IMG/VR virus record: IMGVR_UViG_3300022690_002678 | Source: a virus | Reading direction: 5' to 3' (one strand) | Length of the DNA: 64,000 nt | Notes under the pieces: model-generated | Told to the model about the DNA's origin: nothing | The model's database searches: none | Seen by the model: only the letters and a program-made list of their open reading frames with translations | Shown here: positions 4,237-63,924 of the stretch, in pieces | Numbering within the stretch: position 1 is the first letter of the stretch | Layout: the number at the start of each line of letters is the position of its first letter | Translations under genes and position numbers: made by a program

Positions 4237-6163
4237 TACTAGAGAATCATTGTGTGGCAACTGCAAACATTTTGTTGCAGGCGGTCTCTGTGAACTAGTA
4301 AAGGGTCAGATAAAGGCAAAAGATACATGTGACTTGCATGCATATGGGCACCCACAACCAATTGATACAGAAGTCGATCCCAAATACAACAAGCTAGAAG
4401 TAAACTACAAGCCAGGATTTATGGTTGAGACTATACTAGAAACTACTACAGCTGATGTTGCACAAAAAGCATTACAAATGGAGCATGAGCTATTATCTCG
4501 CGGATTATCACAAACAGAAGTAGACCGAGCAGTAATTGCATATTTCTCAGAACGTGAACCGCCATATGCAGAGCCGTGGCCTGGGCCAGTTACAGGAGTT
4601 GACTTGGCAGGAACTATTAACAACAATATAGTTGTTGCAACAAGAGAGCCGTTAACAAATTTTGCAGGACTGCCAGATGACGTGCAGCCATATCCAACAC
4701 CAAATAAATCACCATACGGCATTGGAAGCTCATCATTACCATACCAGTCATTTCTTAGTCCAGATCCCAACTCCATTGGTTCTTTATCTAATGTTTATGA
4801 TGTATTAGCTACACCATACCCTGGAGACAATACTAACTGGAATGCAACTGCATCGCAGATAAACACTGAACCATCAATGCATGGCGAGCATGGATTTACA
4901 GTTGCAAAAGCAATTCCTGAATGGCGATACAACATTGAGGATTCGCAAGTGTATCCAACTAGTGTATCGCCTGATATTATACTTCCACCAAGCGGCACTA
5001 ATCGTTTAGCTGAAGCCAAAGAAAAAAAAGACACGCAAAAAAAATTGCGTAACCTTTTGCTAAAGTGGGGGTTAGTGTTAGGTGGACTGGTAGGAATCAA
5101 TAAAATTTTAGACAGTCAAGATCCAGACAAGCCACTAGAGCTATACGCAAAATACACTGCAACACTTGATGGCAAGACTTGTCCTGAATGCAGAGCTGCC
5201 AATGGTAAAGTTTTCAACTTTATTGAATTGCATAGACGACCAGTACTGCCAAGTGAGAATCTCGGATATACTACTCGTCACCCAAATTGCAGATGTAAGT
5301 GGGATGTACAGTATGATTATACAGGTAATATCGACTCACTAGATAGAAAAGAAGAATCAGAAATTCACAAGATTGAATCGCACATTAGCAATGCCGCAAA
5401 AGACGGAACACTACACAAAGTAAAAAAAGATGGAGCGCTAGAAAAAAAGACAACAAAGAAAAATCCCATAAAGGAATGTGGATGTACACATTTACCACAA
5501 TCAATTCAGTTAGAGTTACCAGTTGTAAAACTTGATACAAGATTATCTCTAACTATACAAAAAACATTACAAGAAAGCATTTCTAATCTTCGCTCAGAAT
5601 TTGATTGGCTAACTGAAGAGTATATAGAAAAGGCGCGAGAGCTTGCAGCAGATTCTGGAGGAGTGCTGTATTTGGTACGTGCAGCAGGTGAAACAATTAC
5701 AGATCACATGTCAGAAGGAGAAGCATACAGAAGAAAATTATCCGCAGATGAACTAAACTCTATGACCAGAACAGCAATTGGTAAATCTATGGACATCAAC
5801 CACCAACCAGAACTTGAAGTTGATGCAACCATACTTGATGCAGAATTTGACAAGTATAGAAAAGAGATTCAGATGTTAGTGGTAGTCCAAGATAATACAA
5901 TTAATGACGCAATTGATGATGGAAAAATTACAGCAGTATCAATTAATGGCGGCATGCCACGTTCAGAAAGTATAGAGCCATGTGATCATGATTGTACAGA
6001 TAATTGTGAGTTGTGTTTGGTTCCAAAAGGTGTAGTGTTAGGTGAACTTGATGGGATTGGTATGACCTTTGTAATTACTGATCCTAAAGGATTGTACTGG
6101 AACGGAAGATTTGTATCCAGCGCGGAACCTGGCATTAAATTCACGCGCCTCGAAAAATTATAA
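4214..6163 (+). CDS. Fusion: HiPIP-like 4-Cys domain + MuF/gp7 head morphogenesis domain + putative prohead protease
   Basis: CGNC-x8-C-x12-C at N-terminus; LDGKTCPECR...HPNCRC (MuF); C-terminal DINH...ILDAEF...ITAVSIN segment resembles capsid maturation proteases; precedes scaffold. Confidence 0.7.
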   Translation: MSKNQDTSTRESLCGNCKHFVAGGLCELVKGQIKAKDTCDLHAYGHPQPIDTEVDPKYNKLEVNYKPGFMVETILETTTADVAQKALQMEHELLSRGLSQTEVDRAVIAYFSEREPPYAEPWPGPVTGVDLAGTINNNIVVATREPLTNFAGLPDDVQPYPTPNKSPYGIGSSSLPYQSFLSPDPNSIGSLSNVYDVLATPYPGDNTNWNATASQINTEPSMHGEHGFTVAKAIPEWRYNIEDSQVYPTSVSPDIILPPSGTNRLAEAKEKKDTQKKLRNLLLKWGLVLGGLVGINKILDSQDPDKPLELYAKYTATLDGKTCPECRAANGKVFNFIELHRRPVLPSENLGYTTRHPNCRCKWDVQYDYTGNIDSLDRKEESEIHKIESHISNAAKDGTLHKVKKDGALEKKTTKKNPIKECGCTHLPQSIQLELPVVKLDTRLSLTIQKTLQESISNLRSEFDWLTEEYIEKARELAADSGGVLYLVRAAGETITDHMSEGEAYRRKLSADELNSMTRTAIGKSMDINHQPELEVDATILDAEFDKYRKEIQMLVVVQDNTINDAIDDGKITAVSINGGMPRSESIEPCDHDCTDNCELCLVPKGVVLGELDGIGMTFVITDPKGLYWNGRFVSSAEPGIKFTRLEKL

Positions 6164-6186
6164 TAATACAATTTTTTATTAAACTC

Positions 6187-6272
6187 GTCAGGGTCGCCAA
6201 GCATGGTAAGGCGTGTGTTTGATAAACACTTGTTGTACCCTCAACTCATGGGTTCAAATCCCATCCCTGACG
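6187..6272 (+). tRNA. Type II tRNA with Ser-like body and GAT (Ile) anticodon
   Basis: Acceptor GTCAGGG/CCCTGAC, G73; D arm GCC-AAGCATGGTAA-GGC; loop TTGATAA (GAT 6221-6223); long variable arm GTTG/CAAC; T arm ATGGG-TTCAAAT-CCCAT. Confidence 0.8.
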
Positions 6273-6341
6273 GGTTTATGAATTAATTAAAGATACCTTT
6301 TATTTAAAAATACCTTTAATCGTACCTCAGATCTTTTCTTA

Positions 6342-6449
6342 TTGCCACCTGAATTAAACGAATCACTGAACATGTATAATTATACAAAATCATTTCTAAA
6401 AGAGGACAAGTCTTTCCAAAAAAACTGGAAGAAACTATTCAAAAAATAA
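6342..6449 (+). CDS. 35-aa peptide predicted from promoter spacing
   Basis: TTG exactly 32 nt after ATACCTTTAA at 6310; MPPELNESLNMYNYTKSFLKEDKSFQKNWKKLFKK. Confidence 0.4.
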   Translation: MPPELNESLNMYNYTKSFLKEDKSFQKNWKKLFKK

Positions 6450-6704
6450 CCTAATTTTCTTTTTTAAATTTTCTATATCTTCAGGATAAATGTTTTCAAT
6501 CTCTTCTCCCATCTCTTTTCTTATTCTTCCATAAACTGAAATTGCATTTAGTGTATTATCTAATAGAGCATTAAGAATTTTTTCTTTAGAGTGCTCATCA
6601 ATTGCGCATACAAGTTCATCATGTGCAATTTTTGCGCCCTCTACAATTTCTCTATACAACAACCATAATCGTTTCACTTTTTCATTATCATCCATAACAA
6701 ACAA
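6435..6704 (-). CDS. Hypothetical protein
   Basis: 89-aa helical ORF in an otherwise unoccupied gap. Confidence 0.55.
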   Translation of the reverse strand: MFVMDDNEKVKRLWLLYREIVEGAKIAHDELVCAIDEHSKEKILNALLDNTLNAISVYGRIRKEMGEEIENIYPEDIENLKKKIRLFFE

Positions 6705-6780
6705 ATTTTTTTAATCTATAAAAATCTTAAATCTTTTTTAAATTGATTATACCTTTAAGGAGAATATCTATTCCTAATTA

Positions 6781-28538: not shown

Positions 28539-28595
28539 AATATTTAACGTATAAATTATCGAAAAGCTCTAATATTATTTTTTTAGACTAAACTC

Positions 28596-28681
28596 GTTGA
28601 CGTCGCTTAGTGGTATAGCGAGAGATTGAAAATCTATGATCGAGTGCCTCGGTTTCATGGGTTCAAATCCCATCGTCAACG
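28596..28681 (+). tRNA. Type II tRNA with Ser-like body and GAA (Phe) anticodon
   Basis: Acceptor GTTGACG/CGTCAAC, G73; loop TTGAAAA (GAA 28628-28630); long variable arm ATCGAG/CTCGGT; T arm identical to 6187 copy. Confidence 0.8.
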
Positions 28682-28749
28682 GGTAATTATAACAAATTAG
28701 ACTATCCTGTATTTAATAATACCTTAATTGTAAAATCAAAAATTATTAC

Positions 28750-31700
28750 ATGGGCAAAGCACGATCCTTCTCTGATGCTAGCAAAGACGCACTATACCAA
28801 CAAGAACTTGGCGATGAACTATACAGCACATCAGCCCAGCAAAACCCATACAATTTAGGCAGTGTTCACTTTTCAGACCAGAGCGGAATTGGAAACTTTT
28901 CACAAGCAGGCTCTGATCAAAGAAAGGCAAACCTCAATGGGGCACTATACACTGGAAACATTGGCTTTGAGCTGCAAACAGCAGTGCTTGATATTACTAC
29001 TAATACAATTGATCTTTTAGAGGACGGTTCTAGTGATCCACTATCTGTAGTATCTACTGATAGAATTGTATCAATATTTGGTGAAACCGAAGCTAATCTA
29101 ATTACAATTCTTGGAGTACAACGTCAAGGCCAACGGCTTTTTTTGTATGGAATATTTGGAAATACAATTACAATAATTCACACGGCTGCGGCAACAGACA
29201 ATACAATTCTATGCCCTGGAAACACAAACTTTACTCTATCTGATACTGAAGTAGTTGAGCTAGTCTATGATATTACAAATGCAAAGTGGAGAATAGTTGG
29301 TGGTACAGGAACGGGAGGTGGCGATGTTACATTTCCATTACTCTTGCCAAAAGAAGACTTGACTCCAGCCGCATTAGGTACTGCAACAATAAATGTCGCT
29401 TTAAACACAGGAAATGCAAAACAGATTCAGTTTCCTGCTGGAAATATTAATTTTTTAATTACAGGTGATCCTACAAACACGTTTGGTGAGGAAATTGATG
29501 TAATGTTTATTCAAGACAGTATTGGTAGTCGTACACTTCTCACCATTGATTCTAGAATTAAAGACAGCTCATCAATGAATGCTCTGATAGATTCAGGAGC
29601 AAATGCCAAAACAATATTCAAGTTAATAACAATGGATGGCGGTGTATCATACCACTATGAAGTAATCTCTCCAGCAGGTACAGTCTCTTCTGGAAATCTA
29701 TCTGATCTATCCATTGATGTGACAAAGAATTGGTTAGACTTTGGAATTACTAGTCTTGGGCCAATAACAATGTCAAGTGTTGCTGGTAGTGATATTGATC
29801 TTACTGCTAATGATATTCTAAATGTTGATAGATTACAATTATCAGGTGGTACCACTTCTGTAACTTCTACAGATGATGTAGTATGGTATGTTGATCCAAG
29901 TGGTGATCTAATCTCAAATGTTGGATTAAATGATGGATGGGGATGGTCAGTAAACAATTTACTAAGAGCTTCTTTTATTGATGGTATCTTTCAGATTCAA
30001 GATACAGATGATGCTTCATCTTTTAGAATTTTAAACACTACTCTTAGCCCATCTGATAGGTCTATTGGGGCATTTGAGCTAAGTGGATTAAATAGTGATT
30101 CTACTCAACTTACTATGGCATTTTTCGCTGGCAGTGTTGTTGAGACTACTTCACTTGGTTCTGGTTCTGCACAAATTGGTGTTTTAATAGATGGTAGTCC
30201 GAATAATTTTATTCGAATAAATGACGCTAATGTAGGCGATATTGATTTTCTTGCCGACTTGGATATGAATGCTCAGGCAATAATTCTTGATGCAACTGGT
30301 TTTAGTAAGATTCAAGCTGGAACTAATGATGTAATTCAGTTTACAACTGGCCCTACTTCTTCTACTGTTCAGCTATCCCTCAGTAGTTCTTCAACTGTAA
30401 TAACACAAGACACTACCATTGGTGGCGACCTGACACTAGTAGACACATCAGATACTAATCCAATTTTGACTTTGTTTAGAAATGATTCAACACCGAATGA
30501 TTTTGATTTTGCAGGACAAATTCTTTTTAATGCAAATACAACTGGAACTCCAACTGAGAGATCATTTGGAATTATTAATGTAACTGAAGAAGAAACTGAT
30601 GATACAACAAGAAGGGGAAAAATGGAACTGCTTGTTGCAGATGCAACTAATCTAACTGGTACAACATACATCGAATTGGATGGAAGTGCAAATAGTGGAT
30701 TAGGTTCTATCACGTTAACTGTTCCTGTTGTAAGTGAAAATATAACTCCTAGAAATGTTGGTGGCACTATAGGCGAAGATGGTGATGTGTGGAGTACTGT
30801 TTACTCTACAAAATTCATAATGACTACTACTGCACTAACAGGAGTTCCTTTTGATGAACAAATAATACTTGGACATCAGGACGCTATGAAATTTAATGTT
30901 CCTGTTGGTGAGACATTTATTTTTCATATAGGGGATGGAGTAGATACTGCAATACCTCAATTTGAAATTCAAGACGGCGATGCCGTATTATTTAATGATG
31001 TATCTTTTGCAACAATGAATCTTCAACGTACAACACTAGCACTTCCTAGCGGTTCTGCAATTTCGCAGCTGCACTTTCAAGGAAATACAGATAGTGCATC
31101 CGAATCAATTGTAAGTTATGCCACAATAGAAGCAATTGCAACTAATACTGCTGAAGGTACAGCTGGAGATGGTGCAGTAGGACAATTAAGTTTAGCAGTG
31201 ACTGAAGCTGGAAGTACGGCACTTGTTGATTATTTGAGAATAACAGGTACAAGCATCATTGATATGTTTAAAGACTTGGACATGAACACCACTAATTCCA
31301 TACTAAACATGGGTGGTGAGACAATTAACAGCATAACAGAAGATACTACTCCTGTGAGTTCTACTGACTTTGTAATGACTTATGATGCAAGTGCAGCTGC
31401 ATTAAAAAAAGTTTTGTTAGATAATTTACCAGGAGGTAGTGGTACTGTAACTTTTCCCATTGACTTTCCAGTAGATGAATTGGGTACACTTGGAGATACT
31501 ACCCTTAATTTTAGCTGGGTTCCATCCGATCGACATGCACAAAATATTTTGCTTGATGGAGATCTTACTATAGCCATAGGGACAGACCTTCCTGCCGATA
31601 CGCTTGGTCTAACAATGTTCAAACTAAAACAAGATGTTACAGGAGGACATTCTGTAACATTTACTGGAATTGTAAATACGAGTCCTACTATTGATGAGAC

Positions 31701-42265: not shown

Positions 42266-42356
42266 TGCCGAGGGTGGGTTTCGAACCCACGACCTCCAGA
42301 TTATGAGTTTTGCCTTTTGGAGATCTGGCACTCTAACCAGGCTGAGCTACCTCGGC
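42266..42356 (-). tRNA. tRNA-Met(CAT), elongator type, with ~16-nt non-canonical intron (about 42308-42323)
   Basis: GCCGAGG/CCTCGGC+A; CCAGA-[intron]-CTCATAA-TCTGG; T arm GTGGG-TTCGAAA-CCCAC. Confidence 0.9.
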
Positions 42357-48417: not shown

Positions 48418-48615
48418 TTGAAGAAACAACCAATAATATTAGATCTTACAGAAAAATTTTGGTCTAACATAAAATTAGTTGATTCACCAAAGAATGTAAA
48501 AGGTCAATGTTGGATATGGACTGGAAAATTAGATAAAAATGGATATGGTAAAGGTCTCACTTCAACTATAGATTCAGGGATAGATACAGTAAATACTATA
48601 TCCAGTCTTAATTAA
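48418..48615 (+). pseudogene. Truncated HNH homing endonuclease
   Basis: EKFWS...CWIWTG...NGYG then unrelated sequence; HNH core missing. Confidence 0.7.
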
Positions 48616-48635
48616 TAATTTAAGATCCATAAAGG

Positions 48636-48845
48636 ATAGTTCGTTGTTTAGGAAATAGATTTGGTACTGGCTGTTACAGAATAACTAGAAATCCTCAGAA
48701 CCGTACAAATTGGAGTAAATATCAATTATGTCATGACTGTGCAAAGATTCTGCATGCAGAGGATTATGTGGGAGTTAAAAATCATGGGACTAGGAGATAT
48801 GCAAATGATGGAATAGGTAGATCTGTAAGGTATGGTGAATACTGA
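48636..48845 (+). CDS. Small Cys/His-rich protein, probable ATA start (paralog of 340-558)
   Basis: (M)VRCLGNRFGTGCY...NWSKYQLCHDCAKILH...KNHGTR. Confidence 0.6.
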   Translation: MVRCLGNRFGTGCYRITRNPQNRTNWSKYQLCHDCAKILHAEDYVGVKNHGTRRYANDGIGRSVRYGEY

Positions 48846-48994
48846 AATATTCACTAAAATAGATTATTCAATTTTAAAACATAAAAGATTAAGAACCATT
48901 TTCAGGCTCTTAATCATAATTACCATCGGGTAACCATTTACCGATTAGATTACTAAATCCTTCTAAATAAAAGTATCTTAATGTACCAAAATAA

Positions 48995-49077
48995 TGCGTA
49001 GAGTGGGATTCGAACCCACGAAACCCTGAGGTAACTATTTGGTAAATGGTCACTTTTGACCACTCGGTAATCCACGC
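48995..49077 (-). tRNA. Type II tRNA with Leu-like body and ACC (Gly) anticodon
   Basis: Acceptor GCGTGGA/TCTACGC, A73; D loop GAGTGGTCAAA; loop TTACCAA (49041-49043); long variable arm; T arm GTGGG-TTCGAAT-CCCAC; mismatches in D and anticodon stems. Confidence 0.75.
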
Positions 49078-49142
49078 ATAATTTTGTGATATTTGTGAAA
49101 TATAAATTAAATATAAAAAAATGGTTTTAGTAACAAAAATTA

Positions 49143-57061: not shown

Positions 57062-57328
57062 TTAATTACTATAACATTGTAGTACTTTCATGCAGCAATC
57101 ACAACAATACCAGTCACCAAAGGATGCCGATTCACTCCATTTAATTCTACATAAATGCTCTGAAACGACCTTCTTTGTTGGAAAACTATCAGCTGTCAGA
57201 TCAGCGCAATTAATCCATAATAAATGCCATACAGTGGCGCTCTTTATTTTATTATTCTTAAATAATACAAGATTCCTTTGTGATGTGGTAACAAAATGGA
57301 GAGCACAGTAATTTGGCACTAGATACAC
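57062..57328 (-). CDS. Small Cys-rich protein (start uncertain)
   Basis: HLC...WYCCDCC...CYSN; degenerate copy of its 3' end at ~52140-52220. Confidence 0.4.
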   Translation of the reverse strand: MYLVPNYCALHFVTTSQRNLVLFKNNKIKSATVWHLLWINCADLTADSFPTKKVVSEHLCRIKWSESASFGDWYCCDCCMKVLQCYSN

Positions 57329-58524
57329 TAAATTTTCTCAGCTCTACTCTAACGGAACAAGAATACCTCACACAACGCGGTGCTCGAAGCCGAGATACTG
57401 CTGGATTGCTGATGGCAGCCCTTACAAATGTAAAACTTTTCTGTGAATATGAGGCAAAGACTGACTTTTACATTATCATGGCAGAACTCAAGAAACACTC
57501 TGATGAAAAAAGAGATGCCCAAAGTACGTTAGTATTTCTGCAAAAGTTTGTGGCATGGCTTCACTCTGAGCATCCCGAAATAATGATGAGAACCAACCAA
57601 AACAACGACAAGATGGTATTTCGAAAAAAGCGTGTGTCATCTATCCGTAACTATATCGGCGAGCTGCGAAAATATTTCAAACGTGTCGGAGGAATTCCTG
57701 TAACTGCTGAGGATGTCTCTGACTTTATCATGTATCCTGAGGATAGTGAGGAGGAAGAGGCAGAACCATTAACGCATGATGAGTTGCGAAGAATAATTGA
57801 CAACCAGAAGAGCTTTCGACGAAAGATGCTATACAAAATAACTAAAGATACGTGCTCTCGAATCCGTGCAATCTGTGCATTAAAGCGAGAAAATGTAAAC
57901 ATTGATGTGCGCCCAATAGAGATTACCTTTCCAAAACATATCATGAAAGGCAAAAAGAGAACCGTAGTAAAATATGTCACAGCAGAGAACGAAGCTGACT
58001 TTATCCGATTTCTCCAGGACTATCCTGATCCCCGTGAATTGCTCTTTGGCACACATCCTGATCCAAAAAAGGCATCAAATGTCGAGCAAAAGATATGGAA
58101 CAGATTTGTAAAGAGTTTAGGGTTTACTGAGGTATATCGCCACAACAACCGCCTAAAGAAGAACATCCACTCTATCAAGGCATTTGCAGAGACGGCAGCA
58201 GAAGATGCAGTTGATGCGTTTTATGCCAATGCGTATGGAGACCATGACAACTATCTCTCACAATATATCAGATGGACATATGAGAAAAAGATTAAAAAAT
58301 TCCGAGCAATGGAGGTAAAACTAAACCTGTACACCAAGATAGTCAAAGTAGTTGACAACAAGATAGCCCTTGAGAAAAACCTTGAACTTGAGCAAAAGAT
58401 TGCATCAGTTGATGAGATTCTAAAGGAACTCAAACACAAGGGAACTGAAGCAAGTCAAATCCCTGATGATAAGATGAAAAAAATGTTTGAGGATATACTG
58501 CGAGAAAATAAAATCATTCCATAA
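57313..58524 (+). CDS. Tyrosine recombinase/integrase
   Basis: N-terminal SIRNY core-binding region; catalytic R (CSRIRA), K (MKGK), HSIK, GDH, Y (SQY). Confidence 0.85.
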   Translation: MALDTLNFLSSTLTEQEYLTQRGARSRDTAGLLMAALTNVKLFCEYEAKTDFYIIMAELKKHSDEKRDAQSTLVFLQKFVAWLHSEHPEIMMRTNQNNDKMVFRKKRVSSIRNYIGELRKYFKRVGGIPVTAEDVSDFIMYPEDSEEEEAEPLTHDELRRIIDNQKSFRRKMLYKITKDTCSRIRAICALKRENVNIDVRPIEITFPKHIMKGKKRTVVKYVTAENEADFIRFLQDYPDPRELLFGTHPDPKKASNVEQKIWNRFVKSLGFTEVYRHNNRLKKNIHSIKAFAETAAEDAVDAFYANAYGDHDNYLSQYIRWTYEKKIKKFRAMEVKLNLYTKIVKVVDNKIALEKNLELEQKIASVDEILKELKHKGTEASQIPDDKMKKMFEDILRENKIIP

Positions 58525-58535
58525 ATCATCTATTC

Positions 58536-60878
58536 TTAATTAATCAAAGTCTGAATTTTACTATCACATATGGCAATCTCATCACTCAAAGATATGTGTG
58601 GCTGATCATCAAGCAAATACTCGCTAAAGAGTGGGGTGTTCTTGTCTGTTATGGTATATGGATAATTTTCTGCTAGCCATTGCTGTGCCGTATATTCATT
58701 TTCCAGCAAAGTGCATTGTGTAAATAACTCATCGAGATTGTAGGGTGAACTTCTCAGATCATCATAACTAACAATCACAACTATGTCATCAACTGGAATA
58801 CCATACAACTTTTCAATGGTTTGCTGAGCTAACTCCTGCTGTTGTAGGATGAGATTAGGAAATTCTGAATGCAGTCTATCATTGTATCCACTCCATTGTG
58901 AATATTCATCCGTAATCTTCTGTGGAACAGGTAACGTATCTACTAGGTGTGGGCCATATTGATTGTCGTGCTTCCACATGTTACCGTATTTGTCGTCCCA
59001 CATGTCAGTCTTGTAATCCACTAGAGTTAACAGCACAGTTCCAGATCTTTGTGGATAAAATGCTTCACTTGGTACAGCAACATTTTGTTTCAGTGGATCA
59101 TTTAATGACTCACCAACTACTAGCACGCCGTGATTGAGGAAATTTAGCTGCGAATTTCCAGCACTATCTCTTGCATTGATTGCAATAATGTTATACTTTG
59201 GTTGGTCTCTGTACACATACTCCAATGATACCTCCAGGCACTGAGTTTGACTATCGGGGCTGCAAAATACACGAGCAGTTGATACACTAATGACATCAAC
59301 GAGATTGTTTTTATCAATAACTACAATCTCCTCTACCAGAGCGTCATCAATGGATATCTCTGCTAGTGTTTGTGCATAATTTAATGGAGAACCAACCTCT
59401 GGCATTCCAAGTCCGAACTGTACCATCTTGATATTGTCGACTCCTTGATTTTCATATATTTTGACAGTAGCTGTGTTTGTCATATTGGTAGTTACAGTAA
59501 TTTCTGGAAAGTCTGTATGGTAATTTGTAACATTGACTGAATTGGCATTGTATGTAAAGCCCTCCCATACTATTAGACTGTTAAATGTGTTCTTGCCAAA
59601 GGTTGGCTTTGTACAGTCAGCACAGCCACCATTACCGCCAGAAGGGATACTATCTGTAATGTGGGCAGGCAGACTAATTATCTGGACACCATCACCACTA
59701 CGACTTGTAGTTATAGCATAAAGAAGATTATTAGAAGTAAAGGTTGCAACATCATAAGGACTATCCAACGCTGTAAACCCATTAACCTCGTCAATTGCTG
59801 TATTTCCTGCAATTATGTCAGTAGGATCACTTAGATTAATTATTTGGGCACCGTTTTCTTCAGCAGATGCAACTATCGCATAAGGAACATCATCAACAGT
59901 AAAGGTTGCAACATTAGAAGACCTATCTAACACTGTAAACCCATTAACCTCGTCAGTCTCTGCATCTGTTGCAATTATGTTTGTAGGGTCACTTAGATTA
60001 ATTATCTGGACACCGTCATCATCAATACTTGTAACTATTGCATAAACGATACTATTAACAGTAAAGGTGTTAACACCAGCAGCCCCATCCAACGCTGTAA
60101 ACCCATTAACCTCGTCAAACTCCGCATCTGTTGCAATTATGTCAGTAGGATCACTTAGATTAATTATCTGGACACCGTCATCATTCTCAGATACAACTAT
60201 CGCATAAGGAACATCATCAACAGTAAAGGTTGCAACATCATTAGCTGCATCCAACGCTGTAAACCCATTAACCTCGTCAAACTCCGCATCTGTTGCAATT
60301 ATGTCAGTAGGATCACTAAGATTAATTATCTGGACACCGTCATCATCATAACTTGTAACTATCGCATAAGGAACATCATCAACAGTAAAGGTTGCAACAT
60401 CATTAGCCCCATCCAACGCTGTAAACCCATTAGCCCCATGAGTCTCCGCATCTGTTGCAATTATGTTTGTAGGGTCACTAAGATTAATTATCTGGACACC
60501 GTCATCATTATAACTTGCAACTATCGCATAAGGAGTATTACTTACAGTAAAGATTGCAACATTAGTAGCCCCATTTAATTCTGAAAATCCATTAAACCCG
60601 TCAGTCTCTGCATCTGTTGCAATTATGTTTGTAGGGTCACTTAGATTAATTATCTGGACACCGTCATCATTATCAGATGCAACTATCGCATAAGGAACAT
60701 CATCAACAGTAAAGGTTGCAACACCATAAGCTCCATCCAACTCTGAAAATCCATTAAACCCGTCAGTCTCTGCATCTGTTGCAGTTAGAGCTATATCCGT
60801 GGCAAAAGCAACATCAAAACTTAAAGCTACTGAAAAAACTAGGATCAAAAAACTAAATCTAAGTAGGGTCTTATTCAT
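58536..60878 (-). CDS. Secreted LVIVD-like repeat beta-propeller protein
   Basis: Seven ~51-aa repeats (153-bp DNA repeats) VATFTVDDVPYAIV...GVQIINLSDP; C-terminal GGCADC..PT domain. Confidence 0.8.
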   Translation of the reverse strand: MNKTLLRFSFLILVFSVALSFDVAFATDIALTATDAETDGFNGFSELDGAYGVATFTVDDVPYAIVASDNDDGVQIINLSDPTNIIATDAETDGFNGFSELNGATNVAIFTVSNTPYAIVASYNDDGVQIINLSDPTNIIATDAETHGANGFTALDGANDVATFTVDDVPYAIVTSYDDDGVQIINLSDPTDIIATDAEFDEVNGFTALDAANDVATFTVDDVPYAIVVSENDDGVQIINLSDPTDIIATDAEFDEVNGFTALDGAAGVNTFTVNSIVYAIVTSIDDDGVQIINLSDPTNIIATDAETDEVNGFTVLDRSSNVATFTVDDVPYAIVASAEENGAQIINLSDPTDIIAGNTAIDEVNGFTALDSPYDVATFTSNNLLYAITTSRSGDGVQIISLPAHITDSIPSGGNGGCADCTKPTFGKNTFNSLIVWEGFTYNANSVNVTNYHTDFPEITVTTNMTNTATVKIYENQGVDNIKMVQFGLGMPEVGSPLNYAQTLAEISIDDALVEEIVVIDKNNLVDVISVSTARVFCSPDSQTQCLEVSLEYVYRDQPKYNIIAINARDSAGNSQLNFLNHGVLVVGESLNDPLKQNVAVPSEAFYPQRSGTVLLTLVDYKTDMWDDKYGNMWKHDNQYGPHLVDTLPVPQKITDEYSQWSGYNDRLHSEFPNLILQQQELAQQTIEKLYGIPVDDIVVIVSYDDLRSSPYNLDELFTQCTLLENEYTAQQWLAENYPYTITDKNTPLFSEYLLDDQPHISLSDEIAICDSKIQTLIN

Positions 60879-63292
60879 AATATCATACTTATCTAGTTCT
60901 ATTAAAGCATTTTCAAATTAAAATCTAATGGCTATAAAAGATTCTACAATCTTAATAATCCCACAAAGGAGTAAGCGCTCTAAAGTGACAGTTATTTCTG
61001 TCTCCTCCATTCATCGTTTGGTTTAGTAGAGGATCATTGCATGTATGATCAGGAAGTGGGGTAATCCTATCAAACCAATTGTCATTGATTCTCTTGTATT
61101 CAATGCCGTTTTGGTCAATCCAAATATCCTTTACTTTGTCAGTTCTTGTATAGTTCACCCAAAGGTCTGTGGTTTGTTGGTTTAGATGCTTCTCAAATAG
61201 GATGATAGTTGGAGAAATATTTACAGAGTCGCCCAATACTGCAATGCCGTGATTAAAGTAAAAGTTTTGAGAGTTGCCTGGTTTGTCAACTACATTTACT
61301 ACCATCATATTATTCAGGGTTGCTTCACGGTAAGAATACTGTAAAGTTATTTTGAGACAAGATGAGGTAGTGGCTCCACATGATATAATATTAGATGTAG
61401 CAGTAACAGAGGAGTTTTCTATCAAATTATCTTTGTCAGTAATAGTTAGCTCGTCAGTTTCCATATAGCCACTAGTGTAATTCTTGAATAAAGGAACTTC
61501 AATTATCACTTCAAAAGTAGATAATGGTTGTCCTAACTCTTGACCACCTAAGCCAAACTGAACACGTTTCATATTGTGAGTACCGCCATTCTCATATACA
61601 ATTATCTCTACGCTGTTAGTTTCCCCCACTGTTGCGTTGATTAGTGGAAACGGAGTATGCCATCTTACTACATTTACTGGATTGTTATTGTAAGAGAATC
61701 CATTCTCAACTACTCTATTGTAATTTGTGTCTAGTCCTATTGTTGGTGGAATACAATCAGCACATCCACCATTACTCTTCTTTTTGGTTTCAGTAGTCTC
61801 TTCAACATCATCCCCTGGAATATCATCAGCAGTTTCGTATATGGATAGAGTGATAGGGGTTCTAATAGTTCCGCCACCAGCGTCTTCAATCACACCCAAT
61901 GTGTAATCACCATCATTTGCCTCTATCATACAATAAAAGGTATAATCACCTATCTGTGAAAATACGTCATTACCAGAAAAAGATAGAGGGATGTCAAGAC
62001 TTGTATCTACCAAAACAGTCAGGCTTCCATCAGGCGATTCGTAAACGAAGTATAAATATGAAACGTAATCTCCAGAGTTTAGAGTGTAATCACAAGAATA
62101 TTCTACATTACTTCCCACAACGGCCGTCGTAGGATTGAATGTAACTGAGTATGTAGGCGTGATAACCGAGTCCGTACCATCATCATCAACACTATCAATC
62201 ATTGAAATACTAACGTGAATAGTAACAGGAATAGTAGGTTGATATGTCTCACTACCTTCATCAAAATAACAAGAGACTTGCCAGCTCCCAGGATCCGCAA
62301 AACTTGTGACTTCAATTATGCTTTTTGCCGTACCTGGAGAATCATTAATTATAGGATCTTTAACAATACTGCTATCATCAAGATTGGTAAAAGTAAACGC
62401 AAAATAATCGGCACGATAGCCCTCTGGGACATTTTCTAATGAACATTCAAGTAAAACATTACCATTCACATCCACATCAGTTTCAGTGGTAGTAATAGTA
62501 ACTACTATAGGATTCACAACAGGGGTTTCTACGATTATAGTTTCAGGGGCACTATACACTGGAGTGTCACCATCATTATACATATAACAAGAGACTTCCC
62601 AATTTCCAGCAGTAGCAAACTCATTAGTATCAAAAGCAGAATAACCACCAGTCACACCGTTAGCATAAACATCCTTTACAGATGAACTTTCAAGGCTTCC
62701 TGTTTCTGAGTGGTACTCAAATTCCGCATAGGTGAAACTATCATCTTCAGTATTACAAGCAAAATCATATATCTGGTTAGTTTCATAATATGTTTCATCT
62801 GCCTCTATGATTACAGGTGTATCAGAAATTGTTACAGTTTTTTCTATCTGACTATATTCAATTCGAGTGTCGCCTTCCCCAATATCCTTATTCACAACTA
62901 CTGCACAACCCACCGTGTATGTTGATGCGATTTCAAAAGTTAGTTCTGTAGAATAGATACTATCAGGCCCATAATAAAGAACCAAATCAGAAAAGGTTGA
63001 AGCCCTATCCGATAAGTCATCTTCCCAATAGATGTATGAATACTTCAACGTTTCATCATCAGGTAAAGTAAAATCACAAGTATAGAGAATGGATTGATAA
63101 GTGTATGTTGGTGTGCCATCATCAACCAAATTTACAGTAGCATCGGCGGCATAAACAGGAATTAAAAGCGGTAAACAAGTTGCCATTAAAACAACAAAAT
63201 ATATTTTATTCATTTCTTCACTCTATAGGAATTATTTGTTAGTGTCTTATTCATAATATCATACTTATCTAGTTATATTAAAGCATTTTCAA
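60868..63292. repeat. 49-bp direct repeat (60868-60916, 63244-63292; 1 mismatch)
   Basis: GTCTTATTCATAATATCATACTTATCTAGTT(C/A)TATTAAAGCATTTTCAA; promoter plus first codons of minus-strand genes. Confidence 0.85.
60952..63213 (-). CDS. Secreted Ig-like repeat protein, paralog C-terminus of 58536-60878
   Basis: Signal peptide; GGCADCIPPTIG...YENGG...QFGLG shared domain. Confidence 0.75.
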   Translation of the reverse strand: MNKIYFVVLMATCLPLLIPVYAADATVNLVDDGTPTYTYQSILYTCDFTLPDDETLKYSYIYWEDDLSDRASTFSDLVLYYGPDSIYSTELTFEIASTYTVGCAVVVNKDIGEGDTRIEYSQIEKTVTISDTPVIIEADETYYETNQIYDFACNTEDDSFTYAEFEYHSETGSLESSSVKDVYANGVTGGYSAFDTNEFATAGNWEVSCYMYNDGDTPVYSAPETIIVETPVVNPIVVTITTTETDVDVNGNVLLECSLENVPEGYRADYFAFTFTNLDDSSIVKDPIINDSPGTAKSIIEVTSFADPGSWQVSCYFDEGSETYQPTIPVTIHVSISMIDSVDDDGTDSVITPTYSVTFNPTTAVVGSNVEYSCDYTLNSGDYVSYLYFVYESPDGSLTVLVDTSLDIPLSFSGNDVFSQIGDYTFYCMIEANDGDYTLGVIEDAGGGTIRTPITLSIYETADDIPGDDVEETTETKKKSNGGCADCIPPTIGLDTNYNRVVENGFSYNNNPVNVVRWHTPFPLINATVGETNSVEIIVYENGGTHNMKRVQFGLGGQELGQPLSTFEVIIEVPLFKNYTSGYMETDELTITDKDNLIENSSVTATSNIISCGATTSSCLKITLQYSYREATLNNMMVVNVVDKPGNSQNFYFNHGIAVLGDSVNISPTIILFEKHLNQQTTDLWVNYTRTDKVKDIWIDQNGIEYKRINDNWFDRITPLPDHTCNDPLLNQTMNGGDRNNCHFRALTPLWDY

Positions 63293-63357
63293 CTTGACAA
63301 ATTGAACTATTTAACAAATATTCAAGAAATATAAAGATAGTATATCTAAATTGATCA

Positions 63358-63924
63358 ATGTTGGAGGATAATGAAGAGTCACTTCCAGAGTCAAAAATCA
63401 AGATAATTCGCCTTACTGATGAATATCTGAAAATATTTGGTGAATTACTAACTAATGAGACAAGTCGCAACATCATAATGGCTCTAGTTGAAAAACAGAT
63501 GTATGTCAATCAGATAGCCGACAAACTTGACATGCGAGTTAGTTTGGTGATTCATCATTTGCAAAAACTAGAGAAATTAGGATTATTAGATATTGTAGAG
63601 AAACCAATCTCAAGGAGAACTAAAGATCACAGATTTTTCAAGATACGAACCGATGTTTTCTTGTTGTTTACAAATAAGGACGTACAGAGAATTTTCAAGG
63701 AAGGAGTAAAGTTTGCAAGTGTTGCCCTTGCAGGAGTTGCGACATGGTTTACAACTTTGTCAATGCAGCTAAAGATAAACGCACCTTTACCAACTTGGTT
63801 TTATGATAATTTACTTTTACCATCTGTTTTTACAGGTATTGTAGTTTCTGCAATGTCAATTCTTTTCTTTAAAAAAAGAAAGGGGAAGATGAGTAATCAA
63901 TCATCTACTGACCAATCATCATAG
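63358..63924 (+). CDS. ArsR-like winged-HTH regulator with C-terminal TM helices
   Basis: LLTNETSRNIIMAL...IADKL...VIHHLQKLEKLGLL. Confidence 0.8.
   Translation: MLEDNEESLPESKIKIIRLTDEYLKIFGELLTNETSRNIIMALVEKQMYVNQIADKLDMRVSLVIHHLQKLEKLGLLDIVEKPISRRTKDHRFFKIRTDVFLLFTNKDVQRIFKEGVKFASVALAGVATWFTTLSMQLKINAPLPTWFYDNLLLPSVFTGIVVSAMSILFFKKRKGKMSNQSSTDQSS

Follow-up and report, generated by a model that had tools for sequence, protein, structure and literature searches.

A tRNA gene with a leucine-type body and an ACC anticodon in a head-tailed virus of the Nitrosopumilaceae

The window analysed here, a stretch of 64,000 nt available as IMG/VR virus record IMGVR_UViG_3300022690_002678, represents a head-tailed virus that encodes a Mu-F-like protein, large tail-like proteins and a tyrosine integrase (57313-58524). 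In total, four transfer RNA (tRNA) genes were identified in the window by ARAGORN, including a tRNA-Met gene with a 16-nt intron (42266-42356), and the subject of this report is the one carrying the anticodon ACC (hereafter the ACC tRNA), which was called at 48994-49078 on the minus strand with the anticodon at 49041-49043. The Rfam model RF00005 covered the gene fully (48995-49077, minus strand; model positions 1-71) with 39.7 bits (E 7e-5; gathering score, 29), the lowest score among the four tRNAs of the window, and the family covariance model R1 gave 103.7 bits. The host lineage of the virus is Nitrosopumilaceae, because the codon usage is close to that of a Nitrosopumilaceae genome, the intron-bearing tRNA-Met resembles the tRNA-Met of Nitrosopelagicus, and homologues of the odd tRNAs described below are found in this family. 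No exact match to exon 1 of the tRNA-Met was found in the genome contigs.

The ACC tRNA forms a canonical 7/5 cloverleaf in which U8, A14, G18G19, U33 and a T loop of the UUCRANY type are all present. The acceptor stem (GCGUGGA/UCUACGC) is paired at all 7 positions with one G.U pair, the discriminator base is A73, and CCA is not encoded by the gene. The D arm (ACCG-AGUGGUCAA-AAGU) contains a Leu-like loop and a C12.A23 mismatch, the anticodon stem (ACCAU/AUAGU) contains a C29.A41 mismatch, the variable region reads U-ACC-UCAG-GGU-UU-C, and the T arm (GUGGG-UUCGAAU-CCCAC) has a perfectly paired stem. The initial annotation of the window had listed the A73, the long variable arm, the Leu-type D loop, the loop TTACCAA and one mismatch in each of the D and anticodon stems, and direct reading recovered all of these features. 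It had also described the gene as the third type II tRNA of the window with a non-cognate anticodon, which holds, both the tRNA at 6187-6272 (G73, anticodon GAU) and that at 28596-28681 (G73, GAA) being long-armed.

Genomes of ammonia oxidisers were reached through matches to the Arch-amoAF (amoA) primer. When 401 Nitrososphaeria genomes were searched by BLAST with the 83-nt tRNA, a single near-full-length match was obtained, in genome G284 (81% identity; E 1.8e-13). This copy was also called as tRNA(ACC) by ARAGORN and has the same 7-nt loop as the window copy. The remaining matches covered only the T arm or the 3' half of host tRNA-Leu genes (at most 89% identity over 37 nt). The 401 genomes included G408, on which none of the conclusions depends. 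The 3' flank is likewise homologous between the window and G284, and a search with this flank revealed a diverged unit in G045 (loop CUAUCAA, anticodon AUC) and flank-only copies without the tRNA in G347 and G302. Among the 151 genomes of the genus to which G284 belongs, G668 contains a well-formed AUC copy (83 bits with R1) and G669 contains a flank-only copy. Altogether, the tRNA family was found in 3 of about 750 Nitrososphaeria genomes searched, namely G284 (ACC), G045 and G668 (both AUC). The G045 copy scores 26.8 bits, under the Rfam gathering score, is devoid of G18G19, and may be decaying.

No further member was detected by pattern and model searches of the 401 sampled genomes, 62 viral loci, IMG/VR and JGI metagenome contigs. 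A 60-nt query from the 5' part gave only chance matches beyond G284 in the 401 genomes, and the D-arm 15-mer gave 44 matches in IMG/VR, all of them by chance and in coding DNA. The D arm combined with the loop (TGGTCAAAAGTGN5TTACCAA) matched 2 IMG/VR and 23 JGI metagenome contigs, with no tRNA among them. The variable-arm/T-arm pattern retrieved only Ser, Tyr and Lys tRNAs of bacterial jumbo phages from IMG/VR, the pattern of trailer hairpin B (described below) gave 0 matches there, and matches in GenBank phages were confined to the T arm. Other long-armed tRNAs were seen in IMG/VR loci representing bacterial phage arrays (L294, L297, L527:4600-4680, L530:4084-4164 and L532:9099-9186), which contain Lys(UUU), Trp(CCA) and Asp(GUC) tRNAs of this shape. 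Among 80 sampled viral tRNAs with a Leu/Tyr-like D loop, 2-3 have anticodons outside Leu, Ser and Tyr.

As judged from its sequence, the ACC tRNA is a chimera consisting of a tRNA-Leu body and a Gly-type anticodon loop (an Asp-type loop in the AUC copies), always with A34. R1 scores were 83-104 bits for the family, 61-69 bits for canonical host tRNA-Leu genes, at most 54 bits for Ser-type tRNAs and 35-43 bits for the two tRNA-Gly genes that appeared, and the variable arm has the same architecture as that of host tRNA-Leu (U, 3-bp stem, NNAG loop, UU, C). A34, A73, the AG at the Leu-type tip of the variable arm, and GGGUUUC are invariant in all four family members. In Haloferax, the determinants for leucyl-tRNA synthetase (LeuRS) are A73, the A47c-G47d tip and U47h (reviewed in PMC9976931), and determinants of this type, with positions numbered by alignment, are kept in all four members as well as in host tRNA-Leu. 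The Leu-type body given in the initial annotation, and its point that archaeal LeuRS relies on A73 and the variable arm, are thus in good agreement with the family.

The anticodon, ACC or AUC, is not a leucine anticodon (NAG or YAA). All three host tRNA-Gly genes have the loop UU-NCC-AA, of which UU-ACC-AA is the version with A34, and the loop of the AUC copies resembles the host Asp loop. Host tRNA-Gly genes are 74-76 nt in length and have G, U or C at position 34 (GCC, UCC and CCC), from which the ACC tRNA differs in its 13-nt variable region and A34. G284 possesses a full set of tRNA-Gly genes (CCC, UCC and GCC), so that its ACC gene is supernumerary; the initial remark that an A34 glycine anticodon is odd for a prokaryote is borne out by ACC lying outside the normal host set. 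In Aeropyrum pernix, the determinants for glycyl-tRNA synthetase (GlyRS) are C35, C36, C2-G71 and G3-C70 (PMC9976931). All four are present in the window copy, whereas the G284 copy has U2-A71 and A3-U70, and the AUC copies lack G73 and G34, which Asp identity requires. This leaves leucine as the sole identity common to the family. It had also been proposed that the odd tRNAs of the window involve exactly the synthetases that ignore anticodons. Because the window copy also has the GlyRS determinants and carries the host Gly loop, this idea stands as one reading among several.

The ACC tRNA is a genuine, selected gene. Among the window, G284 and G045 copies, 8 of the 24 cloverleaf pairs are changed on both sides, paired cells account for 90% (about 40% in slid controls), and the observed covariation score was reached by 0 of 500 shuffles; four copies, with G668 included, give the same picture (90-91% over the two sets). 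Between the window and G284, the doubly changed pairs are 2-71, 3-70, 28-42, 30-40 and 50-64. Upstream of the gene, 9 of the 10 bases of an A/T-rich box (Table 1) are the same in G284 (AATTCATATT), and the remaining upstream flank is unconserved. The box, AATTYATATT, is conserved at -31 to -22 and is, from its position, a candidate promoter element. Because of the stem covariation and the conserved box, the gene is not regarded as a decaying remnant. Folding in silico also gave a non-cloverleaf minimum free energy structure, favoured by about 17 kcal/mol, that has base pairs between the D loop and the 5' strand of the anticodon stem; positions 13-34 can form a 9-bp hairpin (GAGUGGUCA/UGACCAUUU). 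A weaker form of this hairpin is possible in G284 and none in G045, and it was rejected as a conserved structure, since it is missing from G045 and the covariation of the anticodon stem favours the cloverleaf. Host tRNA-Leu likewise fails to fold as a cloverleaf in silico.

The gene is followed by a trailer of about 120 nt, in which a block of about 78 nt is about 85% conserved and comprises a single-stranded 5-mer, two hairpins (A and B) and a U tract (Table 1). Variants of the hairpins hold their pairing through G.U pairs, which are possible only on the tRNA-sense strand, and a convergent gene comes next in each of the four other genomes in which open reading frames (ORFs) were mapped (G045, G347, G302 and G669); the trailer thus has the appearance of the end of the tRNA transcript. 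The T-rich run after hairpin B is found in the window, G284, G668, G669, G347 and G302 and is interrupted in G045 (GCTTTG). This run probably marks the end of the tRNA transcription unit, where termination would be expected.

The 5-mer of the trailer is exactly complementary to anticodon-loop positions 32-36 in all four units, GGUAA facing UUACC in the window and G284, and GAUAG facing CUAUC in G045 and G668. The pairing extends to 100% of the cells, with changes on both sides at two of the pairs. The chance of finding GAUAG at that exact spot is about 1e-3, with the four units representing one evolutionary switch only. We regard this complementarity as real; the 5-mer may serve in the control of the tRNA or as an aid to folding or processing. 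Orphan trailer blocks without a tRNA lie at L417:1501-1577 (G347), L418:1501-1553 (G302) and L537 at about 1500-1590 (G669), of which the G347 block keeps GGUAA and the G669 block keeps GAUAG. A conserved peptide encoded over the trailer was considered and rejected, the frame being without a start codon and closed in G668 and G669. An anti-anticodon trailer as a general property of odd tRNAs was rejected as well, the motif being missing from the other families of such tRNAs. The trailer matches no Rfam family, and no T-box was detected in the window at the gathering threshold or in L415 at E values up to 0.1.

Table 1. Features of the ACC tRNA unit and its surroundings in the window
Feature	Position	Strand	Basis
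Candidate archaeal TATA box, A/T-rich AATTTATATT, 22-31 nt upstream of tRNA position 1	49099..49108	-	G284 alignment
tRNA gene with Leu-type class II body (A73, 13-nt variable arm) and anticodon loop UUACCAA	48995..49077	-	ARAGORN, Rfam, family model R1, covariation
Poorly conserved spacer from the tRNA 3' end to the conserved trailer block	48943..48994	-	Alignments
Trailer 5-mer GGUAA (codon GGU + AA), complementary to anticodon-loop positions 36-32	48938..48942	-	Same place in all four units
Trailer hairpin A, UGGUUACC-CGAU-GGUAAUUA, 8 bp	48917..48936	-	RNAalifold consensus over 5 sequences; 94% of cells paired in 4 units
Trailer hairpin B, GAUUAAGAGCC-UGAAAAU-GGUUCUUAAUC, 11 bp	48887..48915	-	RNAalifold consensus
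T-rich run TTTTATGTTTT after hairpin B	48876..48886	-	Seen in relatives too
65-aa ORF, N-terminal fragment of an HNH (homing-type) endonuclease	48418..48615	+	PHROGs profiles

The tRNA family is mobile, because its members are located in insertion-sequence-rich or accessory DNA. The G284 copy lies just past the L21e-RpoF-DUF655-KsgA operon, where synteny with 12 congeners ends, and is surrounded by genome-specific repeats and an IS1595 transposase. The G045 copy adjoins an IS110 transposase, the G668 copy adjoins a ParB-domain gene, and in G669 the orphan trailer is preceded, about 300 nt upstream and on the side expected for the tRNA, by an rve transposase gene. In the virus, the 42-58 kb region holding the ACC tRNA is almost wholly unalignable with relatives. 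A related capsid protein (53-92% identity) was found in 41 IMG/VR records, only 3 of which contain any tRNA, and none of the tRNAs of the window was found in 8 close viral relatives fetched whole. The HNH fragment listed in Table 1 lies about 250 nt past the end of the trailer block on the opposite strand. It matches only the N-terminal part of phrog_3593 (E 8.6e-5) and phrog_826 (E 1.1e-4), profiles of 210 and 281 positions, respectively, and its frame is broken by stops downstream (48616-48860); this ORF probably represents a remnant that marks the context as mobile.

In the virus, GGU serves as an ordinary glycine codon, without recoding. GGT accounts for 34% of the viral Gly codons (25 per 1000 codons), as in the host. 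In proteins shared with relatives that have no tRNA, GGT aligns to Gly at 82% of positions, as do GGA and GGC, and the six residues most often aligned to GGT do not include Leu. Reassignment of GGU was rejected on the basis of this frequency and this alignment.

Our tentative preference, held with somewhat less than even confidence, is that the ACC tRNA is a deviant tRNA analogous to the nev-tRNAs of nematodes, one that would be charged with leucine, would read GGU and would be held in check. The nev-tRNAs are derived from tRNA-Leu and have Gly or Ile anticodons; leucine is the only amino acid that they accept in vitro, and they translate GGG as Leu (PMC3333845, PMC4300185). In the proposed scheme, a cassette consisting of the TATA-like box, the tRNA and the structured trailer may move between Nitrosopumilaceae chromosomes and their head-tailed viruses. 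The host would transcribe and process the gene and add CCA, and the host LeuRS would then charge the tRNA with leucine by reading A73 and the tip of the variable arm, not the anticodon. Unmodified A34 would pair with U and make GGU readable, and the outcome would be a deviant leucine donor at a glycine codon, present at a low or controlled effective level as for the nematode nev-tRNAs.

Several observations weigh against this interpretation. The viral genes themselves contain many GGU codons, so that efficient misreading of Gly as Leu would also be harmful to the virus. With its GlyRS determinants and host Gly loop, the window copy could carry glycine. Even the nev-tRNAs of Caenorhabditis elegans give no detectable mistranslation in vivo (PMC4300185). 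The conserved pairing between the trailer and the anticodon loop hints that the loop may be kept for RNA-RNA pairing, not decoding. The nearest-neighbour energy of the cloverleaf is only -13.6 kcal/mol, compared with -31 kcal/mol for the alternative fold, and there are mismatches in the D and anticodon stems, that at 29:41 also being found in G284.

Among the other explanations, it is somewhat unlikely that the main job of this tRNA-shaped RNA is a non-decoding one, such as that of a decoy, an anti-defence RNA or one half of an RNA-RNA module (self-masking, autoregulation or toxin-antitoxin-like addiction). Such a role would be consistent with the trailer 5-mer that changes along with the anticodon in all four units, the tRNA-less trailers in G347, G302 and G669, the thermodynamically weak cloverleaf, the mobile-element setting and the presence of about 20 further odd tRNA genes in G284. 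However, all features that a tRNA needs to be processed, charged and used by the ribosome are conserved, namely the acceptor stem, the T loop, U33, a loop context like that of real Gly or Asp decoders and, in 3 of 4 copies, G18G19. The co-variation of the 5-mer and the anticodon is a single evolutionary event. Five pairs including U33 and N32 would also require an unusual anticodon-loop geometry, and no such trailer is found in other odd tRNA families. A two-part RNA module, in which a potentially toxic Leu-charged tRNA misreading GGU or GAU would be accompanied by a cis 'anti-anticodon' trailer that sequesters or senses its loop, could act as an addiction, exclusion or self-limiting device; we consider this decidedly improbable. 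If it were true, the orphan trailers in G347, G669 and G302 would be leftover 'antidotes', and the module would be the first case in Archaea in which codon-anticodon pairing is used in a toxin-antitoxin-like or T-box-like manner. The idea of a glycine-accepting helper, which would be charged by GlyRS and read the frequent GGU through a Watson-Crick A34:U pair, with the long arm as a tolerated leftover of its origin, is improbable. It would account for the full set of A. pernix GlyRS determinants in the window copy and for the identity of its loop with that of host tRNA-Gly, and it would give the virus, in which 34% of Gly codons are GGT, a reader for a codon that the host reads by G:U wobble only. 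Yet the Gly acceptor marks are not conserved, being replaced in G284, and the sister AUC copies cannot be Asp tRNAs (A73, A34). The Leu-specific arm tip and A73, which are not needed for glycine charging, are kept in all four copies, and nev-tRNA-Gly was charged with Leu only. The class II GlyRS comes from the variable-loop side of the tRNA, and the long arm may clash with it.

A decaying pseudogene, or an attachment-site (att) remnant of integration into a host tRNA-Leu as suggested in the initial annotation, is highly unlikely. The position bordering an accessory island, the lowest Rfam score of the window's four tRNAs together with two stem mismatches, and the G045 copy falling under the gathering score would fit such an origin. 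The comparison with host tRNA 3' halves, which had been proposed as the check for an att core, showed no identical host half (best match, 89% over 37 nt in the 401 genomes). The 5' acceptor strand is not unrelated to the 3' half and pairs with it at 7/7 positions, at least 8 pairs show compensatory changes, the window and G284 copies, although 19% diverged, have the same 7-nt loop, and the upstream box and trailer are conserved. It is extremely improbable that the anticodon was mis-called and that the apparent variable arm is a non-canonical archaeal intron, with a class I tRNA-Gly as the mature RNA. Thaumarchaeal tRNAs with non-canonical introns do exist, for example the tRNA-Met of the window and the 93-95-nt tRNA-Val(CAC) of G043 (L251) and G284 (L455), which represent two genera. 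The latter has a 24-nt insert in the variable region and is probably a normal tRNA-Val with a non-canonical intron, showing that introns can mimic long arms. In the ACC tRNA, however, the arm consists of a 3-bp stem and a 4-5-nt loop, forms no bulge-helix-bulge and corresponds position for position to the arm of host tRNA-Leu; the scores of the D loop and of the whole body point to Leu and not to Gly; and A34 would be anomalous regardless.

The two Ser-type odd tRNAs of the window also sit in small insertions that are absent from relatives. The insertion at 6144-6727 measures 583 bp, compared with 95 bp in G002, and that at 28539-28753 measures 214 bp, compared with 6 bp in G004. The sequences AAACTC and GGGT flank each of the two tRNAs and would lengthen the acceptor helix. 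In IMG/VR record G039, the capsid protein of which is 84% identical, an 84-nt long-armed GAA tRNA (L044:1500-1583) is located about 2 kb upstream of the capsid gene, at the position where the window has its GAU copy. Past the integrase gene, the region at 58536-63924 encodes two large minus-strand proteins with about 30% identity to a 1903-aa surface protein of G284 and an ArsR-type regulator, and is possibly host DNA flanking the integrated virus.

Odd tRNAs are also abundant in G284 (Nitrosopumilaceae; a single 2.23-Mb contig), which contains 61 tRNA matches compared with 35-41 in three other Nitrosopumilaceae genomes. Its odd tRNA loci (L439-L461) include those at 181324-181414, 1539986-1540076, 1917747-1917837, 1237756-1237841 and 1186239-1186321. 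Three copies of a Ser-type GAA tRNA (G73, long arm) share the acceptor stem GUCAGGG/CCCUGAC with the window tRNA at 6187-6272. Long-armed Ile(UAU) and Arg(UCU) tRNAs are present as well, together with a family of 71-72-nt class I tRNAs that have a common GGGC.../...GUCCA acceptor stem and the anticodon GAA, UAG, CGA or AAG. The neighbourhoods of the extra tRNAs are mosaics of repeated elements. Deviant tRNAs have proliferated in this host genome, and marine ammonia oxidisers and their viruses may provide a natural system for asking why such tRNAs are kept, and whether deliberate mistranslation or tRNA mimicry is part of the viral repertoire. Through its co-variation with the anticodon, the trailer could offer a handle on the control of a dangerous tRNA. 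In a literature search, no report of such tRNAs in Archaea or archaeal viruses was found, which is not proof of their absence.

Of the known tRNAs, the Nitrosopumilaceae tRNA-Leu genes (Leu-UAG, Leu-CAG and Leu-GAG in G284) share with the ACC tRNA A73, a GCG.../...CGCA type of acceptor stem, a GGUCAAA D loop, the variable-arm architecture with the AG tip, and a T arm identical over 20 nt. Significant BLAST similarity is limited to the 3' side of the variable arm, the T arm and the 3' acceptor strand. The ACC tRNA differs in its anticodon stem-loop, which is unrelated (Gly-type), and in its A/U-rich D stem, and its gene is neither syntenic nor conserved among species. The trailer bears some likeness to the T-box riboswitches of Gram-positive bacteria, in that a cognate codon followed by purines is presented just before hairpins and a U tract. 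However, it matches no Rfam family, and it is located 3' of the tRNA gene itself rather than in front of a regulated gene. A UGGU able to pair with ACCA-3' is present in three trailer units and missing in G284. To our knowledge, T-boxes are unknown in archaea, and the likeness is considered to be a resemblance only.

Bacterial allo-tRNAs have Ser identity and an 8/4 or 9/3 acceptor/T-stem geometry, and have been proposed to act as missense suppressors or regulatory RNAs (Mukai et al., PMC5389517). They resemble the ACC tRNA in their anticodon-blind identity, their many non-cognate anticodons and their sporadic occurrence, in bacteria and phages in their case, whereas the ACC tRNA has a 7/5 geometry and a Leu-type body and belongs to another domain of life. 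The nematode nev-tRNAs, like the ACC/AUC family, are class II tRNAs derived from tRNA-Leu, have non-Leu/Ser anticodons (including Gly and Ile) with the Leu identity elements retained, are supernumerary to a complete normal tRNA set, and are conserved though potentially harmful. They are, in contrast, encoded in eukaryotic nuclear genomes and inherited vertically in nematodes, whereas the ACC/AUC family is archaeal and viral, sporadic and mobile. They tend to match rare codons, whereas the ACC/AUC family with A34 would read the frequent GGU or GAU, and they have no counterpart of the codon-bearing 3' trailer. Because there is no sequence homology between the two, the nev-tRNAs are an analogue, not a member, of this family. 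Mismatched long-armed tRNAs have been known from nematodes as nev-tRNAs and from bacteria as allo-tRNAs, and those described here are mobile and occur three per virus.

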